DNA from: an uncultured virus (IMG/VR IMGVR_UViG_3300025316_000017)
Taxonomy: Duplodnaviria > Heunggongvirae > Uroviricota > Caudoviricetes
Strand: one strand, 5' to 3'
DNA: 64,000 nt
IMG/VR virus record: IMGVR_UViG_3300025316_000017
Below, one piece after another: positions 11,625 to 50,762 of this stretch. Under the pieces are notes generated by a model. That model ran no database searches. It worked only from the letters and a program-made list of their open reading frames with translations, and was not told the DNA's origin. Numbering within the stretch: position 1 is the first letter of the stretch; each line of letters starts with the position of its first letter. The translations under genes and the position numbers were made by a program.

Positions 11625-11920
11625 AGCTGTTGAAGTTCATCATCCCCTTGTAAGCGGAATATGTCGTTGCATATCTGCAAAAGGGAGTCTTCAGATATTC
11701 CGTGTGTCCTTTCAAATCCTTTACGTCCAAGCCCGTGAATACCGGTATTTCCACGGTGGTGTTCGGGACAGAGGGGGATAACAGGCGCAGTGTCTCGCTT
11801 ACCACCTCTTCGTATATGGTGTATTTCCGCTGGCGACCCTTCGTAGCCTTTGTGCCAGCACAATATACATCCCAAGTTGGCGAGAGATGAGAATAGTTTT
11901 TTTTGCGCTTTGGTTGACAT
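11621..11920 (-). CDS. Ref-like (RecA-dependent) HNH-family nuclease
   Basis: GCILC...EIHHIR...PLCPEHHRG..GIH pattern. Confidence 0.7.
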   Translation of the reverse strand: MSTKAQKKLFSSLANLGCILCWHKGYEGSPAEIHHIRRGGKRDTAPVIPLCPEHHRGNTGIHGLGRKGFERTHGISEDSLLQICNDIFRLQGDDELQQL

Positions 11921-11921
11921 T

Positions 11922-12068
11922 TCATTTTACTTTTTGGTAAACCGCAGCAGTTACCCGTAGAACATATTCAAGGTCGTTTAAACTTATTTGACCCATAAGC
12001 TGCAAAATTTTCATTACAGCTACATCATTATCTAATGTGGTTGGTTTGACTAACGCTTCTCCGATCAT
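11922..12068 (-). CDS. Small hypothetical protein (48 aa, not in ORF track)
   Basis: Manual translation MIGEALVKPTTLDND...YQKVK*; ATGA overlap and GGAG upstream. Confidence 0.6.
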   Translation of the reverse strand: MIGEALVKPTTLDNDVAVMKILQLMGQISLNDLEYVLRVTAAVYQKVK

Positions 12069-24598: not shown

Positions 24599-24627
24599 AT
24601 ACTAATACTACTTTTTTCTAAATGCAA
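24599..24627 (-). promoter_or_regulatory. Sigma70-like promoter for leftward recombination operon
   Basis: TTGCAT-17bp-TAGTAT on minus strand. Confidence 0.5.
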
Positions 24628-24990
24628 ACACTATTTTTAAAAATATTTGGCGAACCAGCAAGCAAAGCAAATTCACGTAGACAAGTGTTTGTGAAAGGAC
24701 GCTCAATGTTTATCAAGTCGGCGAAGGCATTAACATATGCATCAGCGTTTAAACTTCAAGCAAAAAACCAGATTTCTGAAATGTTGTCTGGGGATGTGGT
24801 GGTAACGATTCGCATTTGGTATGCATCACGTAGACCTGATTTGGATGAAAGTTTAATTTTAGATTTGCTACAGGATGTTACGTATGCCAACGATAGACAA
24901 GTAAAAGAAAAGCATATTTATTGGATGGGTGTAGATAAATTGAATCCTCGGTGCGAAATTGAAGTTCGTTCTCTTGCACAAGAAAAATAA
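24622..24990 (+). CDS. rusA: RusA-like Holliday junction resolvase
   Basis: P.SKAN...RRPDLD...DLLQ...NDRQV. Confidence 0.8.
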   Translation: MQTLFLKIFGEPASKANSRRQVFVKGRSMFIKSAKALTYASAFKLQAKNQISEMLSGDVVVTIRIWYASRRPDLDESLILDLLQDVTYANDRQVKEKHIYWMGVDKLNPRCEIEVRSLAQEK

Positions 24991-25038: not shown

Positions 25039-25073
25039 TGGAGAGCGCCTGTTTAAACGCTCTCCATTTTTTT
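25039..25073 (+). terminator. Intrinsic terminator
   Basis: TGGAGAGCG/CGCTCTCCA stem followed by T7. Confidence 0.8.
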
Positions 25074-25128
25074 CACGGCAGCCGGGTAAGAACAACAAAG
25101 TTTAAACATCCACTAGCATCGAAAGTGC

Positions 25129-25158
25129 TTGCAAAGTATTTCATGTTTTAAGTAAGAT
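25129..25158 (+). promoter_or_regulatory. Sigma70-like promoter
   Basis: TTGCAA-18bp-TAAGAT. Confidence 0.5.
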
Positions 25159-25165
25159 TAAATTC

Positions 25166-25365
25166 TGTTCAGATTGTCGATGAAAAACGGTAGGGTCTGA
25201 ACGTGTATTGCCGATACTATGGTTAGTGCGTTAGAGATCGGGAGGGGATGGCGAAGACAGAATCCCTCGCACGAAAAGTCTGTCGGGTCAATCGAAGCAT
25301 GGGGCACGATTGTGAAGGCAACCTAGTTTAGGCTAGGTCTGCCCTCCCAAAGGGCAAGACCGAGA
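25166..25365 (+). ncRNA. Candidate structured ncRNA with pseudoknots
   Basis: Six or more complementary segment pairs, several needing G-U pairs on the + strand; no long ORF. Confidence 0.55.
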
Positions 25366-25447
25366 GTTAACTAATAGTTATTAGACAAATTTATTTTTTG
25401 TGTAATATGTTGCACATTTTTGTGTGAACAAATTGAAAGAAGTTTTT

Positions 25448-25723
25448 ATGCCATACGTCAACAAAGCAAGACCTTATAAAAAAGAATACCAACAACAAAA
25501 AGAACGTGGCGAACAACCAGCACGTAACGCAAGAGCAAGAGCACGTTATGACATGGATAAAAAAGGTGTTGACAGATCAGGAAAAGATATTGATCATGTA
25601 ACTCCTTTATCAAAGGGAGGAACAAATTCTCCAAAAAATTTAAAATTAAAAACACCAACAAATAACAGATCGTTTTCCCGCAATAGCGATCACACTGTGA
25701 AGACTAACAAAAGCAAGAAGTAG
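25448..25723 (+). CDS. Small HNH-family endonuclease
   Basis: Arg-rich helix then DIDHVTPLSKGG.N...NL.....NNRS. Confidence 0.75.
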   Translation: MPYVNKARPYKKEYQQQKERGEQPARNARARARYDMDKKGVDRSGKDIDHVTPLSKGGTNSPKNLKLKTPTNNRSFSRNSDHTVKTNKSKK

Positions 25724-25732
25724 GAGAAGTAA

Positions 25733-27427
25733 TTGAGCGCATTAAAACAGCTAGTGGAGACACTGCACGTTGATAAGAGAACACGTGTCGCTTGTCCTGA
25801 TTGCTCGCACGAAAGAAAAAAACCAAACGAAAAAGATTTAGAGATTACACCGAAGGACGATGCTTGGGTGTACTACTGTCATCATTGTCAGGCTACTGGC
25901 AATGTGTTATTTAAAAACTATTCAAATAAACCTAACTACATGGAGCGCAATGTGATTCCACTCAGAAGCTACGAGCCAACCAGCCTTGAAACGCAACACT
26001 ACGACTTTTTAAAATCACGTGGTATCAGCCCACAAACAGCAGATGCAATGAAACTGTTTTCTGCAAAAAAATATTTTTCAAAGCTTGGCAAAAATTCTGA
26101 TGCAATTGGTTTTCCATATTTTCGCAACGGTCAATTCGTCTCCGCAAAATATCGTAGTATCGAATCAAAAGACTTCACACAAGACAACGGCGGGGCGCAT
26201 GACTTCTTTGGTATTGACCAAATCGATGCTACGTTACCAGTCATTATTGTTGAGGGTGAAATTGATGCGCTCACACTGATTGAATGTGGTTTACGTAATG
26301 TGCTTTCAGTTCCCGCTGGCGCTCCTATGAAAGTATCTGATGGCAAGATCGATGCTTCCGAAGACAAGAAGTTTTCATTCGTGTGGAACGCTTTCGAGAC
26401 ATTAAACAAAGTGCCCTACGTAACGATCGCAGTCGATACCGACTCGGCGGGTCAGGCTCTTGCTGAGGAACTGGCTCGAAGAATTGGTAAAGATAAATGC
26501 CGAATCGCCAAGCATGACAAAAAGGACTTGAATGAAGTCTTCTTGGCTGATGGTGCAGATCAAGTGCGTAGTATTGTAGAAAATGCAGAACCTTATCCTG
26601 TTGCTGGATTGTCTTCCGCCTCAAAGTTCTTTGACCGTTTAAACGAGCTATGGGACAAAGGAAATGGCAAAGGTGTTTCTACTGGCTACTCAAACGTAGA
26701 TCAGATTTACACCGTAGCGCAAGGTCAACTGACAATCGTTACTGGATATCCATCAAGCGGTAAGTCCAACTTTGTAGATCAAATGATGGTCAACTTAGCA
26801 AAGGCGCATGACTGGAAGTTTGCATTGTGTTCATTCGAGAATCAGCCCGAAGTTCATATCTCCCGCTTGATCGAAATTTACAAAGAAAAAAGATTCTTTG
26901 AAGGAACACAGCGGATGTCGCAAGAAGACAAGGAAGAAGGTTTAAACTGGGTACAGGATCATTTTTTATTTCTTGATGCTGAAGGATCTGAGCCATCAAC
27001 CATTGATTCTATTTTGGAAAGAGCAAAGATTGCGGTAGTTCGCATGGGTATTCGTGGGCTAGTGATTGATCCATACAACTACATTGAGAACAAGAGCGGG
27101 CTGGCAGAACATGAGTTCATTAGTTCAATGCTCACACGTATGCAAGCATTCGCTAAGTCATCAGGTGTTCACGTTTGGTTTGTGGCTCATCCATCAAAGA
27201 TCACACGCTCAGGCATGGATTTACCACGTCCTGATGGCATGGCGATCTCAGGCTCGATGGCTTGGTGGGCGAAGGCTGACTGCGGTTTAACTGTGCACAG
27301 AACTAAAGATCATGGGGTAGAGATTGCGGTTTGGAAGTGTCGTTTCCGTTGGGTTGGAACACAGGGTGAAACAACGCTTGGATATAACAAGGTGACTGGA
27401 ACGTATTACGAGCAAGAAGCATTTTGA
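25733..27427 (+). CDS. Primase-helicase (T7 gp4/Twinkle-like)
   Basis: CPDC/CHHC Zn finger, TOPRIM EGEID/DTD, Walker A GYPSSGKS, VIDPYN, VAHP. Confidence 0.9.
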   Translation: MSALKQLVETLHVDKRTRVACPDCSHERKKPNEKDLEITPKDDAWVYYCHHCQATGNVLFKNYSNKPNYMERNVIPLRSYEPTSLETQHYDFLKSRGISPQTADAMKLFSAKKYFSKLGKNSDAIGFPYFRNGQFVSAKYRSIESKDFTQDNGGAHDFFGIDQIDATLPVIIVEGEIDALTLIECGLRNVLSVPAGAPMKVSDGKIDASEDKKFSFVWNAFETLNKVPYVTIAVDTDSAGQALAEELARRIGKDKCRIAKHDKKDLNEVFLADGADQVRSIVENAEPYPVAGLSSASKFFDRLNELWDKGNGKGVSTGYSNVDQIYTVAQGQLTIVTGYPSSGKSNFVDQMMVNLAKAHDWKFALCSFENQPEVHISRLIEIYKEKRFFEGTQRMSQEDKEEGLNWVQDHFLFLDAEGSEPSTIDSILERAKIAVVRMGIRGLVIDPYNYIENKSGLAEHEFISSMLTRMQAFAKSSGVHVWFVAHPSKITRSGMDLPRPDGMAISGSMAWWAKADCGLTVHRTKDHGVEIAVWKCRFRWVGTQGETTLGYNKVTGTYYEQEAF

Positions 27428-28345: not shown

Positions 28346-28569
28346 TGAATGATCTCGCCATCATCAGGCAACTGCTCTTTGTAAAGACCAGTAATCATGA
28401 TGGATATATTGCGAATAAGGGATTGCTCTTGAAAAGAAAAGAACAATCCCACCTTGGCTATAGTCAACCCCAAGGCGGGGAGGATTGTCTCGACTGGCAT
28501 ACCATCGATTAACTCACCTATCCCCGCCATCAGGTTATCTACTTCATCTGCTTGATCTTCAATGCTCAT
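28342..28569 (-). CDS. Hypothetical protein
   Basis: ORF with AGGAG SD. Confidence 0.55.
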   Translation of the reverse strand: MSIEDQADEVDNLMAGIGELIDGMPVETILPALGLTIAKVGLFFSFQEQSLIRNISIMITGLYKEQLPDDGEIIH

Positions 28570-29375
28570 TACCGTAACTCCTTGAGTAGTTTGTTGAATG
28601 ATGCTGATGCCAAGCCACTGACATTCTCAACATTCTCACCACTCGTGAAGCATTGGTCAACCGTAGTGCGACCGATACCGATTGCCACGATCTTGACACC
28701 GAGCTTGTCTGCTACTGATTGCAAGTGTTTCATATGCGCCTTGCAGTAGCCATCCGCATCAGTGATCAAGAACAAGATCTTGCGCTGTGCATCCTGACGA
28801 TACAGATCCTCAATCGCTAGGCTCAGTGCTGAGTAGTCAGGTGTTGATGACTGCGCCCACTGGCGAATCGATCCAAGCTTTGCCGATGCCTTGGCTAGAT
28901 TTTCTTTCCATGTTTTGAATGGAATGAATCTCACGTGCTCAGTACGAAACGCATCGCCACGCTTAGTCGCACCGCTCTCGTCTAAAGCTTTGAGACTGGT
29001 GTTGCCATGAAAGCCTGTGACGTTGAACTCGACACCAGCCTTGTCTAAGATGCGTGACAACTGGATCGTAATGGATTCAGCGATGACGATCTTGTTATCC
29101 TCCTCCATCGATCCTGAGCAATCGATCAAGACTGACACCGAAGACTTAACAGCATCAACGTGTTGGCGCTTACTAAACACCGCTGTGCTACCGCAAGCAA
29201 ATCGTGTAAACGCTTTACGATCAACCTTGCCTGATTCCTCGTGCGTTGACCAACCAACCAAGTCAACTGAACGTAGCAAGCGTAGGATGTTTGCACGTGT
29301 TGCACCAAGCCCGCTGGTCTGCGTATTGAACTGGGCTGAGAAGTTAGTCTCGCATTCTGCTTTGTTGAGAATCAT
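28569..29375 (-). CDS. VWA-domain protein (CobT C-terminal-like)
   Basis: MIDAS DCSGSM, T and LITDAD; GGAGG SD before ATG 29375. Confidence 0.8.
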   Translation of the reverse strand: MILNKAECETNFSAQFNTQTSGLGATRANILRLLRSVDLVGWSTHEESGKVDRKAFTRFACGSTAVFSKRQHVDAVKSSVSVLIDCSGSMEEDNKIVIAESITIQLSRILDKAGVEFNVTGFHGNTSLKALDESGATKRGDAFRTEHVRFIPFKTWKENLAKASAKLGSIRQWAQSSTPDYSALSLAIEDLYRQDAQRKILFLITDADGYCKAHMKHLQSVADKLGVKIVAIGIGRTTVDQCFTSGENVENVSGLASASFNKLLKELR

Positions 29376-29376
29376 A

Positions 29377-30414
29377 TTACCTCCATGAGAAATGTGAATA
29401 CTGTGGCTTACCAACAGCGGGGATCGGTCTAACCTGATCAGCTTGTGAACGATGTTGCTTTAGTTCTTCACGAATGAAATCATTAGGCTCAACCTCACGA
29501 CCACCATCATACGACTTACCACCACCACGCTTAGGATCTTTGCTTGGCTCGTCACCTTGCTCATCACCTTGGTTACCATCTTGATCGCCGTCCTGATCAC
29601 CAGCCTGATCACCACCCTGATCACTAGGCTCATCACCCTTGTCACCAGCCTGATCGCCTTGCTCACCCTTGTCACCGTCTTGCTTAGGTGCTGGATTAGA
29701 GTTATCAGGTTGACCATCATCACCACTGGGCTGACCCTCCTGATCGCCCTCGCCTTGACCAGCATCCTCGTCTTGCTGTTTGATGCGCTTGAATAATTCA
29801 ACAGCAATCTTGACGATCTCGCTTGTGTCGCTGGCTTTGTTTGCACGACCGAGCGCCCAGTGAATATGCTTGGCATAGATCGAATCATCAATGATGTTTG
29901 GAACGTCAATCACATAACCGTTTAAACGTCTACCCTCAACAGCAAGCACAAACGGAATGTTCTTTGCATCATTGGGATCAACGTAGCCATCACGATCCAG
30001 TACCGAGTTAATCAGATTGCCAAACAGTGCACGTGCGTTAGGCGCATGACCTGATTCGATTACCAACTTTTCGATGCGTGGATCTTCAAGACCGTTGATC
30101 AGGTTACCAACGAACGCACCGTAGCGCTTACGTGCCAAGTCCCAAGGCTTATTCGTTGTGAACCATGCGTGACCCAACTCATGCAACGCATACCCGATCA
30201 GGTTATTAAACGTGGTCTGAGGGATCTCAGCGCTCTCGTCAACCGATGGGAAGATCACCGTTGCATCTAAGTGATCATCACCATAGCGATTGAATTGAAT
30301 GCCAGCAGTTTGACCAGTCCATAACACGTTAAGACTACCGAATTTAAACGTGCTGTTATGGAACACACGCTCAAGGGTTGTAGCGACCCCACGCTTTACA
30401 TTTAGTCCGAGCAT
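29377..30414 (-). CDS. Zincin-motif protein (CobT N-terminal-like) with acidic linker
   Basis: HELGH...NGLEDPRIE; Gly/Asp/Gln-rich linker. Confidence 0.75.
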   Translation of the reverse strand: MLGLNVKRGVATTLERVFHNSTFKFGSLNVLWTGQTAGIQFNRYGDDHLDATVIFPSVDESAEIPQTTFNNLIGYALHELGHAWFTTNKPWDLARKRYGAFVGNLINGLEDPRIEKLVIESGHAPNARALFGNLINSVLDRDGYVDPNDAKNIPFVLAVEGRRLNGYVIDVPNIIDDSIYAKHIHWALGRANKASDTSEIVKIAVELFKRIKQQDEDAGQGEGDQEGQPSGDDGQPDNSNPAPKQDGDKGEQGDQAGDKGDEPSDQGGDQAGDQDGDQDGNQGDEQGDEPSKDPKRGGGKSYDGGREVEPNDFIREELKQHRSQADQVRPIPAVGKPQYSHFSWR

Positions 30415-30423
30415 AAAGCCCTC

Positions 30424-31854
30424 CTATTTGGTTAAGAATGATTTCAGATTAGCGATGTCAATCGTTGCACTGAATACACCACGCAATTCGCTTTCACAAT
30501 CAGCGGGGAACTTATTCACGATTGCATTCTCGAATGCAACTGCGACTGGTGCGCCCTTTTGAATTGCTCTAGCCCATGCGAACAACTGACGTAAGCTTGG
30601 GGGCTGTGTCAGGATTCCCGCTCTCGCTTTCTCACGTGCTACGTTGGCAAACTTGATGAGGATTTCACCAGCATCACGATTCAAGCCAGTTCTGTTGCAA
30701 ACGAGATTGATCTCATCATCGGCTGGCAGATACTCGAAGCGCAACGTGTAAGAGAAGCGATCCAAGAACGCAGTATTCTGATCACGCACACCAGCGAAAT
30801 TGCCTGACGTATCTCCATGACCGTTACTGTTATCAGCACCAAAGAACACCACGTGTGATGCAACTGGAATGCGCTTGCCTGTCTCAGCGATCACAATCGA
30901 ACGGTGTGGGCTACGCTCACACAGTGCGTGTAATACAGCCAAGTTCTGTGCACGTGCGAAACCGATCTCATCGAGCAACACGATAGCGCCTGTGTGCTGT
31001 ATCGCTTGGGTAATGACACCAGCTTTCCAAACCACGTTACTGTTCTCGATCGTATTGCCACCGATAAACTCAGCACGTTCTAAAGCTTCATCAAAGTTCA
31101 CACGAAACAGCTTGCGACCAAGACGTGATGCCAACTGCGCTACGAACTCAGTCTTGCCTGTGCCACGCTCACCAGCCAGCCACACGTTGTCAGGCAATGG
31201 ATCATCGAGAGCGATCAAAGCTTGATGCAAGTGCTGAGGATTAAACACGTAGTCATCGACACGAGCGGGAGCATCAGGATCATTCCACACACCGACCTCG
31301 AAGTCTGAGAAGTCAACGACCTCACCAGCGTATTCATACGAGAGCACACCATCGAACACGTCACGTGCTTTCTTGATTTGAAACACTGGCAATGCATTGG
31401 CAATCTCAGTGATCCGCTGTGCGGGTTCTGTCTTGCGGAACTTCTCGAACACCTTGGAAACTTCTTGCGCAATGTCCACCGATGCAGTCTGCCCAACGCT
31501 TGAAAGCTTTGCGTTTAAACGGTCAGTCAACTTGGCAAAGTCCTTGTCGATCTTGGTTTGAATCTGCAAGGCATTGTCCAGCGCATTGTTGGCAGTCGTA
31601 CGAATTGCATCAACGTCTGACAGCGCTCTGTTGATGTCCTTGCGAACGTCATCAGATACAGCGCCAGTGCGATTGATTGCGCTAGGCTTGGTCGCCTTGA
31701 CCTGATCCAAGGTGACGATGCCAGCATCGATTAACTGCTCGATCTTGGCAACGGCGATAGCCTTGTCAGGCTCTACATCATGGTGACCCTGTACCAGTAC
31801 TTCATTGAGAACTGACAGCGGGATAAGGGATAAAGTTTTTGTAATTGTACTCAC
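30424..31854 (-). CDS. MoxR/CbbQ/CobS-type AAA+ ATPase
   Basis: GERGTGKT, LLDEI, N..G.GD...AFLDRF, SLRQL. Confidence 0.85.
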   Translation of the reverse strand: MSTITKTLSLIPLSVLNEVLVQGHHDVEPDKAIAVAKIEQLIDAGIVTLDQVKATKPSAINRTGAVSDDVRKDINRALSDVDAIRTTANNALDNALQIQTKIDKDFAKLTDRLNAKLSSVGQTASVDIAQEVSKVFEKFRKTEPAQRITEIANALPVFQIKKARDVFDGVLSYEYAGEVVDFSDFEVGVWNDPDAPARVDDYVFNPQHLHQALIALDDPLPDNVWLAGERGTGKTEFVAQLASRLGRKLFRVNFDEALERAEFIGGNTIENSNVVWKAGVITQAIQHTGAIVLLDEIGFARAQNLAVLHALCERSPHRSIVIAETGKRIPVASHVVFFGADNSNGHGDTSGNFAGVRDQNTAFLDRFSYTLRFEYLPADDEINLVCNRTGLNRDAGEILIKFANVAREKARAGILTQPPSLRQLFAWARAIQKGAPVAVAFENAIVNKFPADCESELRGVFSATIDIANLKSFLTK

Positions 31855-50307: not shown

Positions 50308-50762
50308 TGCCAAGCACTAGCAAAAAACAACATAATTTAATGGAAGCGGTTGCTCATAATCCGAGCTTCGCTAAAAAAGTAGGTATCCCTCGCTCTGTTG
50401 GCGAGGATTTTAGTAAAGCCGACAAGGGCAAAACTTTTAAAAAGGGTGGAGAAATGAAAAAGAAAATGGCAAGCGGTGGCGAGACTATGGGTCCTCGTTC
50501 CATGAAGGAAGACGTAGAAGCTGGTTCTAACAAACATGGCAAATTTGGCGAAAGCAAGCTTCAGAAAAAAGGTCACACCAAAGGTAAAAATTTAGGTGAT
50601 ACTGGTAAAAAAGAGCCAATTGAATCTGAAAAAAATATGCCTTCATTTATGAAAGAAATGAAAAAAGGCGGCAAAGTTAAGAAGATGGCTGCTGGCGGCA
50701 CTGCTTCTAGCCGTGCTGATGGTATTGCACAACGTGGTAAAACAGTTGGTAAATATTGCTAA
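50307..50762 (+). CDS. Basic low-complexity virion-associated protein
   Basis: MPSTSKKQHNLM.AVAHNP; repeated xxxGG motifs; RADGIAQRGKT. Confidence 0.65.
   Translation: MPSTSKKQHNLMEAVAHNPSFAKKVGIPRSVGEDFSKADKGKTFKKGGEMKKKMASGGETMGPRSMKEDVEAGSNKHGKFGESKLQKKGHTKGKNLGDTGKKEPIESEKNMPSFMKEMKKGGKVKKMAAGGTASSRADGIAQRGKTVGKYC

Follow-up and report, generated by a model that had tools for sequence, protein, structure and literature searches.

The window analysed here, a 64,000-nucleotide stretch of DNA from an uncultured tailed virus, encodes on its + strand a putative conserved phage non-coding RNA of about 200 nt, the pseudoknotted fold of which is supported by covariation among its homologues. Across the family this RNA displays a variable word of about nine nucleotides in an internal hairpin (X1) and repeats it (X2) at its own 3' end, immediately before AT-rich DNA. 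With somewhat less than even confidence, and on comparative sequence evidence, we propose that the RNA might act in cis to open a replication origin in the phage's own DNA in a manner resembling ColE1 RNA II.

A pseudoknotted RNA that extends beyond its Rfam model

The full structured RNA spans positions 25166 to 25360 (~195 nt, + strand) and comprises an Rfam-catalogued 5' domain and a 3' domain, with the 3' end placed at the limit of conservation. Its first 123 nt (25166..25288) match the whole of RF02932 (Betaproteobacteria-1; model positions 1-120 of 120) at 68 bits against a gathering threshold of 49.4 (E 2.2e-10), which is the sole gathering-level Rfam match across the 64-kb window and overturns an initial sequence-only reading that could assign the RNA to no known family. 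Rfam types RF02932 as Gene; sRNA. We take RF02932 to be a motif from a 224-motif survey; its fold combines three nested stems with pseudoknots, which presumably number three. The family was found in all 20 homologous loci tested, with every match stopping at the same core position, and conservation extends about 75 nt past the model through a hairpin (P5), a near-invariant junction, a second hairpin (P6) and a tail. The model is short of the window's RNA by this length, lacking P5, P6 and the paired word, and no Rfam family covers any part of 25289-25450.

Within the RF02932 domain, assigned from the Rfam score and covariation, lie P1 (25166-75/25194-203), pseudoknot 1 (25188-93/25217-22), P2 (25211-15/25237-41), pseudoknot 2 (25226-30/25268-72), a T-loop-like motif (25231-35), pseudoknot 3 (25245-49/25262-66) and P4 (25256-61/25279-84). 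Beyond it, on the same strand, P5 occupies 25289..25312 (25289-94/25307-12; 89% of its cells pair, and compensation is seen at two of the three pairs counted) and is followed by the junction and P6 at 25313..25340, identified from conservation and pair counts; the outer pairs of P6 are 90% paired yet nearly invariant, while three of its inner pairs are compensated. X1 lies at 25302..25309 (exact core 25302-25306), and X2, recognized by its match to X1 at seven of eight bases, is the last conserved element at 25352..25359. All helices named in the sequence-only reading were located (25167/25196, 25211/25237, 25242/25262, 25256/25279, 25226/25268, 25289/25307, 25321/25333 and a rival fold at 25336-25345/25351-25362); the helix at 25242/25262 joins eight bases to seven with one G bulged, and pseudoknot 1 (25188-25193 with 25217-25222) had been overlooked. 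Model R1, the training set of which includes the window, matches 25155-25364 at 112 bits. A weak second R1 match in the window (50385-50552, 11.8 bits) is probably due to chance.

Covariation supports the fold among homologues

The folding energy of the region departs only slightly from that of shuffled sequence (z -1.87; 4 of 100 shuffles equal it), so the case for a structured RNA depends on comparative evidence. Pattern scans of viral and genome contigs yielded at least 152 profile matches, representing at least 126 distinct members among 453 sequences; once seven truncated members had been removed, filtering for redundancy at 93% left 98. The alignment core contains 22 invariant columns, of which the scan pattern fixes twelve or more, so that core invariance is partly built in. 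One looser scan pattern was discarded, with just 6 of 120 loci real among the matches listed. Tandem matches in L486 (1488-1645) and L499 (240-400) were likewise rejected as an unrelated 53-nt repeat with internal hairpins, present in these two metagenome contigs and matched by chance. A blastn search of the window's RNA against phage records returned no match.

Across the 98 homologues, the 38 pairs of P1, P2, P4, P5, P6 and the three pseudoknots are paired in 88.2% of cells, and 28 of the 38 have changed on both sides, values attained by none of 500 shuffles and compared with 34-43% in slid controls; the alignment was not fitted to the structure, and the pairs were picked after viewing that alignment together with its covariation scores. 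P1, P2, P4 and all three pseudoknots covary, which bears out the pseudoknot-rich RNA of ~200 nt originally suggested from the window alone. P1 (74%) and the inner part of P6 (72%) are the poorest-aligned stems, and RNAalifold recovers just 12 pairs from the raw alignment. Coding potential does not account for the conservation: the 35-codon open reading frame that had been named as a possible source is itself not conserved, its ATG occurring in 3 of 98 members and its frames relative to the core dividing 38/30/30, and this explanation was rejected. The alignment holds 413 G-U cells versus 154 A-C cells, and the ends of the five-base T-loop-like motif covary by switching U/A to G/G; together these features favour an RNA transcribed from the + strand over folded single-stranded DNA.

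Two copies of a variable word covary by identity

X1 and X2 share at least six exact bases in 78 of 98 members compared with 8.9% of non-own pairs. The match recurs among held-out metagenome members (61 members in 122 loci, of which 25 were new and non-redundant, about four of these mis-parsed), with 16 of the 25 sharing at least six exact bases versus 4.3%. The two copies covary by identity rather than by complementarity. The word is 72% purine and takes many forms (76 distinct X2 cores in 123 members), and in five members X2 reproduces even invariant letters of the junction. The remaining 20 of 98 members fall below six exact bases, including the window (five exact, seven of eight overall), and in L316, L089, L537, L640, L643, L639, L593, L646 and L649 X1 is missing or the tail has become a hairpin.

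The match has a sharp outline. Aligned from two conserved C's that serve as anchors, both of which occur in 81 of 167 members and yield 67 in-register pairs in the register that maximises the match, identity starts at 27% (position 0), rises to 72-78% over positions 1-3 and to 90-100% over positions 4-8, and falls back to 36% by position 9. Mismatches are directional: among 57 distinct pairs, a G of X1 stands opposite an A of X2 in 32 of 206 cases and the reverse occurs in 1 of 143, the members counted being related and not independent. This is the direction that G-T wobble of an X1 RNA with the strand complementary to X2 would tolerate. T in X1, however, faces A in 11 of 46 cases and C in four; as T-to-A is common and T-to-C rare, wobble would account for the largest class of mismatch but not for all, and part of the asymmetry could stem simply from A being favoured where X2 begins.

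X differs in 70 of 94 pairs of members whose 5' domains are at least 85% alike, and matching to the own copy is kept in 58 of these 70; by such comparisons X evolves faster than the 5' domain. Nor does X track primase identity (rho 0.015 across 36 primases). Between L084 and L229 the primases are 87% identical and the paired word is held in common, with 5' domains that are 61% alike, and in this pair the 5' and 3' domains seem to have been swapped as modules.

A partner for X was sought in six segments of the RNA, where it paired no better within its own RNA than within that of another member, and own and shuffled duplex energies were the same. No complement or third copy of X was found over control within 2 kb, and none of its complement in the upstream 200 nt or in the hairpin RNA that precedes many members; the upstream search gave z -2.6 in one of five windows of the cousin family type C described below. 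Identical words the complement of which is absent from the RNA imply either that the complement is met elsewhere or that a protein reads them.

The RNA accompanies primases rather than the HNH nuclease

The neighbourhood of the window's RNA is a phage replication module. Its slot is bounded upstream by a RusA resolvase gene (24622..24990, +; PF05866, E 9.8e-09) and downstream by an HNH-type nuclease gene (25448..25723, +; phrog_4590 with a weak Pfam HNH match), followed by a gene for a T7-like Toprim primase/DnaB-type helicase (25733..27427, +; phrog_239, E 2.3e-91; Toprim and DnaB_C). The HNH product has the 91 residues and basic helix that the initial reading ascribed to it and gave no match under E 0.4 against solved structures. 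Nearby on the opposite strand are a nuclease gene and an Erf gene, and the module is adjoined on the minus strand (28569-31854) by a cluster in which one gene lies between those for a MoxR-type AAA ATPase and a VWA (CobT-like) protein. Base skew in the window shows nothing beyond what gene direction accounts for.

A candidate sigma-70-like promoter (25129..25158, +; -35 at 25129-25134, 18-nt spacer, -10 at 25153-25158) ends 7 nt ahead of the first helix and matches 8 of 12 consensus positions, which is under the threshold of the promoter scan. Among the 13 members sharing the window's gene context, nine have a promoter-like site 5-9 nt ahead of P1 versus 2.0% of control windows. None of 42 members associated with Toprim_3 primases has such a site just before P1, and some members begin immediately downstream of a U-tract and show no evident promoter. 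Downstream of RusA, a perfect hairpin (loop >8) with a T run at 25039-25074 is likely a terminator insulating the promoter of the RNA. After the RNA comes an AT-rich tract (25363..25447, +; 77% AT versus 59% for the whole window), a candidate unwinding element that also holds a promoter-like site detected by the scan (25382-25411); across the family, AT content is 0.58-0.62 at 20-60 nt past P6 versus ~0.45 in the flanks. An imperfect inverted repeat at 25400-25432 overlaps the promoter-like site and is a possible operator.

On the RNA side, the count covers 89 loci with flanking sequence. In 41 of them a Toprim_3 primase lies upstream; it usually stops 10-20 nt short of P1 and itself follows a DEAD-type helicase. 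A T7-like primase-helicase lies downstream in 19. In the cultured temperate phage AP1 (OM049504.1), the full element with its paired word is located at about 11850-12065, directly behind helicase and primase. Some members, L288 for example, sit amid capsid genes. Counted from the primase side, the RNA is present in 48 of 72 T7-like primase-helicase loci (eight of 80 having been omitted for lack of upstream DNA, with two of the remaining 72 also short) and in 13 of 31 Toprim_3 loci, leaving 24 and 18 loci, respectively, without it. The HNH behaves differently: it lies near the RNA in 18 of 89 RNA loci, yet only one of the 80 closest HNH loci contains the RNA (73 of the other 79 had at least 400 nt upstream), and it occurs in all 72 primase-helicase loci whether the RNA is present (48) or absent (24). 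In a quick, weakly resolved tree, the HNHs that adjoin the RNA are varied and fall among those that lack it. The RNA thus goes with primases and not with the HNH, which here goes with the primase-helicase; of the two associations that the sequence-only reading had raised, that with the primase stands and that with the HNH falls, and a dedicated HNH partner was rejected from all three sides of the count. Between RusA and the RNA in L046 (2350-2750) lies a second, different HNH-like open reading frame.

Cousin RNAs occupy the same slot

Primase loci without the RNA often hold other structured-looking elements, and 20 of the 24 tested gave no Rfam match. Two uncatalogued kinds, each ~230 nt, were followed further alongside the window's own family, type A; the helices of both covary, and inspection by eye suggests that they share its pseudoknot-3/P4 core. 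Type B (59 non-redundant of 120 matches; L604, L608, L611, L612, L618, L653, L665, L675, L686 and L688-L807) has a G-rich end, carries a paired word of its own, occupies the primase slot in both phage groups and has a primase nearby in 24 of 40 loci. Its word is less variable, with two variable letters agreeing in 52 of 57 members, 43 of those in the majority form. Type C (57 non-redundant of 112 matches in IMG/VR; L591, L595, L602 and L808-L919), which model R1 fails to detect, terminates in the same anchored paired word: at least seven of nine positions match in 26 of 41 members versus 3.8%, and G-to-A differences number 10 versus two in reverse. It is near a primase in just 2 of 42 loci and most often lies by terminase genes, usually preceded by a promoter, a hairpin RNA and a U-tract terminator.

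At least five further structured-looking elements occur in the slot, in the RusA-HNH gap or after the primase (L599/L651/L652; L588/L600; L587/L601; L668/L669; L671/L676), with no Rfam match where scanned. A promoter, a 90-100-nt hairpin RNA and a U-tract terminator directly upstream are found with types A, B and C alike (L256, L319, L591, L665, L675, L809, L817 and L823, ~100 nt upstream); this hairpin RNA, which has no Rfam match and no complement to X, may be an attenuator or a copy-number control. Beside the RNA in 3 of 105 type A loci (one of the three proteins being longer and on the opposite strand), 4 of 42 type B loci and 8 of 43 type C loci lie short proteins whose match to phage initiator profiles is confined to the C-terminal part; those lacking the N-terminal part of the profile include L231:2114-2452, L714, L808, L816, L820, L828, L837, L867 and L869.

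A candidate origin-opening RNA

The complement that lies closest to X2 is the template strand of its own DNA, which together with the precedent of ColE1 leads us to view the element as an RNA that would open an origin by means of a variable guide. In ColE1, according to PMC4412123, the rG stretch of the RNA must pair with the dC stretch of the template, and the hybrid persists, priming synthesis or displacing a strand for helicase and primase (PMC4412123, PMC5043065 and PMC6317783). By analogy, the window's RNA would be transcribed from its own promoter in this phage group, or elsewhere as the tail of a helicase-primase operon, and its triple-pseudoknot domain and P5/P6 would fold as the covariation predicts. 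X1, displayed by P5, could then pair with the template strand at X2 as the polymerase passes, giving a hybrid of ~9 bp. Were the hybrid to persist into the AT-rich tract as an R-loop, it might furnish a primer, or the displaced strand might load the primase-helicase. As X1 and X2 would need to match only each other, the word could drift freely and each RNA would be specific to its own genome.

The own-copy match, the covariation by identity, the lack of a nearby complement, the boundary of the match, the G/A bias, the change of X irrespective of primase identity, the primase context, the AT-rich DNA and the cousins with their own paired words and occasional initiator-like neighbours all point towards this origin-opening role. 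The partial wobble logic, the members without X1, those amid capsid genes or lacking an evident promoter, the primase loci without the RNA and the packaging context of type C weigh against it, and on balance we consider the proposal plausible but somewhat short of an even chance. Among the three roles initially guessed for the RNA, that of a replication-origin or primer RNA fits best, as a candidate. More speculatively, RF02932 and at least two cousins might belong to one widespread superfamily of phage origin RNAs, mutually interchangeable and equipped with a reprogrammable guide of ~9 nt directed at their own DNA, in which an R-loop would replace the DNA-binding head of a protein initiator; we regard this wider scheme as possible rather than probable.

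Alternative explanations

If the words are instead read by a phage or host protein, X1 and X2 would be twin binding sites in RNA or DNA, the RNA a scaffold or regulator, and the copies would change with protein specificity. Identity without a complement is expected from such sites too, the spacing from the conserved anchors is fixed, and the two phages with 87% identical primases hold X in common despite their dissimilar 5' domains. The sheer number of X2 cores and the lack of an overall link to primase identity speak against it, however, and a one-way G/A bias and the copying of junction letters by X2 would be hard to obtain by protein recognition; we judge this explanation unlikely. Unlikely to the same degree is a catalytic or template-jumping RNA, the core of which would cleave or join RNA, or on which a polymerase would hop from X1 to X2 and skip P6. 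The core is compact, with three pseudoknots and its 22 invariant columns (at least 12 of them fixed by the scan pattern), and the match ends sharply after nine bases, close to the ~10 nt of a transcription hybrid given in PMC5043065. Yet no internal guide complementary to X was found, the self-cleaving ribozyme and self-splicing intron covariance models in Rfam gave no match to the window's RNA, and no reverse transcriptase occurs in the neighbour clusters scanned (13 representatives).

A cis switch, such as an attenuator, antiterminator or translation switch controlling the downstream genes through alternative 3' folds, is rather improbable. The window's RNA does head an HNH-primase-helicase operon behind a candidate promoter, and its X word has a second possible partner in the strand that follows P6, giving the alternative 3' fold noted at the outset; the two folds are of near-equal energy (-25.2 versus -24.0 kcal/mol, within 1.2 kcal/mol). 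This mutual exclusivity does not extend across the family, as a tail hairpin of at least five Watson-Crick pairs can form in 15 of 98 members only, and a family-wide two-state switch was rejected. Moreover, downstream genes and distances vary, with the primase upstream in nearly half of the loci, a terminator follows X2 in some members (L246, L250 and L282), no U-tract terminator follows the window's fold, and the identity of X1 and X2 is left unexplained.

Twin direct repeats and rapid change of specificity are typical of antisense immunity circuits such as those of P4 CI and P1 C4. The RNA might accordingly be a trans-acting sRNA or part of such a circuit, with X1 and X2 as twin targets of an RNA encoded elsewhere, a possibility in keeping with the sRNA type given by Rfam and with the many members that follow a promoter, a hairpin RNA and a terminator. 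We hold it to be improbable: an RNA complementary to the twin repeats, as in P4 CI or P1 C4, was found neither across 2 kb nor in the hairpin RNA upstream (the one deviating type C window apart), and a common RNA partner would not produce a one-way G/A bias. HEARO and OMEGA RNAs are structured RNAs that adjoin HNH genes, and a comparable guide or scaffold for the small HNH nuclease is very improbable here, because the adjacency in the window and in 18 loci and the basic helix of the protein are outweighed by its small size (91 aa), the absence of strict RNA-HNH co-occurrence, the presence of the HNH in all 24 RNA-less primase loci, the diversity of RNA-adjoining HNHs and the lack of an Rfam match to those families.

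Relation to known systems and significance

With ColE1 RNA II (PMC4412123, PMC5043065, PMC6317783 and PMC11012335) the window's RNA shares a predicted non-coding fold ending at a candidate origin and a purine-rich RNA word identical to a word of the non-template strand near that origin (X1 = X2, an identity weaker in the window). It differs in length (~200 nt versus 550 nt), in having a variable word rather than a fixed G run, in its two word copies 50-60 nt apart and in the phage-encoded primase nearby. There is no Rfam match to that family, and blastn of one member against plasmids found none; the likeness claimed is of working, not of membership. On the minus strand, from which an antisense control RNA such as RNA I would have to come, the window has one weak promoter-like site between 24900 and 25800, within the HNH gene. 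The T4 R-loop origins oriF and oriG are similarly arranged: each joins a promoter to an unwinding element, and T4 too encodes a primase and a helicase (PMC4412123). The description there names neither a structured RNA nor a paired word. ARRPOF, GEBRO and PAGEV, structured orphan motifs 220-350 nt long, are linked to the replication of plasmids (PMC5737381), but they are separate Rfam families, none of which matches the window's RNA.

The name Betaproteobacteria-1 is absent from the main text of PMC5737381, and the main text of PMC10690425 has no primase, helicase or HNH passage. Our literature search found no study of RF02932 or Betaproteobacteria-1, the supplement of the likely source survey, which may cover gene context, having lain outside it. 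What is already catalogued is the RF02932 5' domain of ~120 nt; what is new is the missing complement of X, the one-way mismatch bias, the sharp boundary of the match, the rejection of the HNH link, a testable mechanism and a paired word that recurs in two cousin scaffolds of the same slot. If the origin-opening role is correct, an orphan Rfam family would gain a function and its catalogue entry would prove to lack the working end. It would also explain how numerous uncultured phages of fresh water, whether they carry helicase-primase modules or headless initiators, choose their origins and, should matched arbitrary words work, the RNA would constitute a small programmable device for RNA-DNA recognition without a Cas-like protein.
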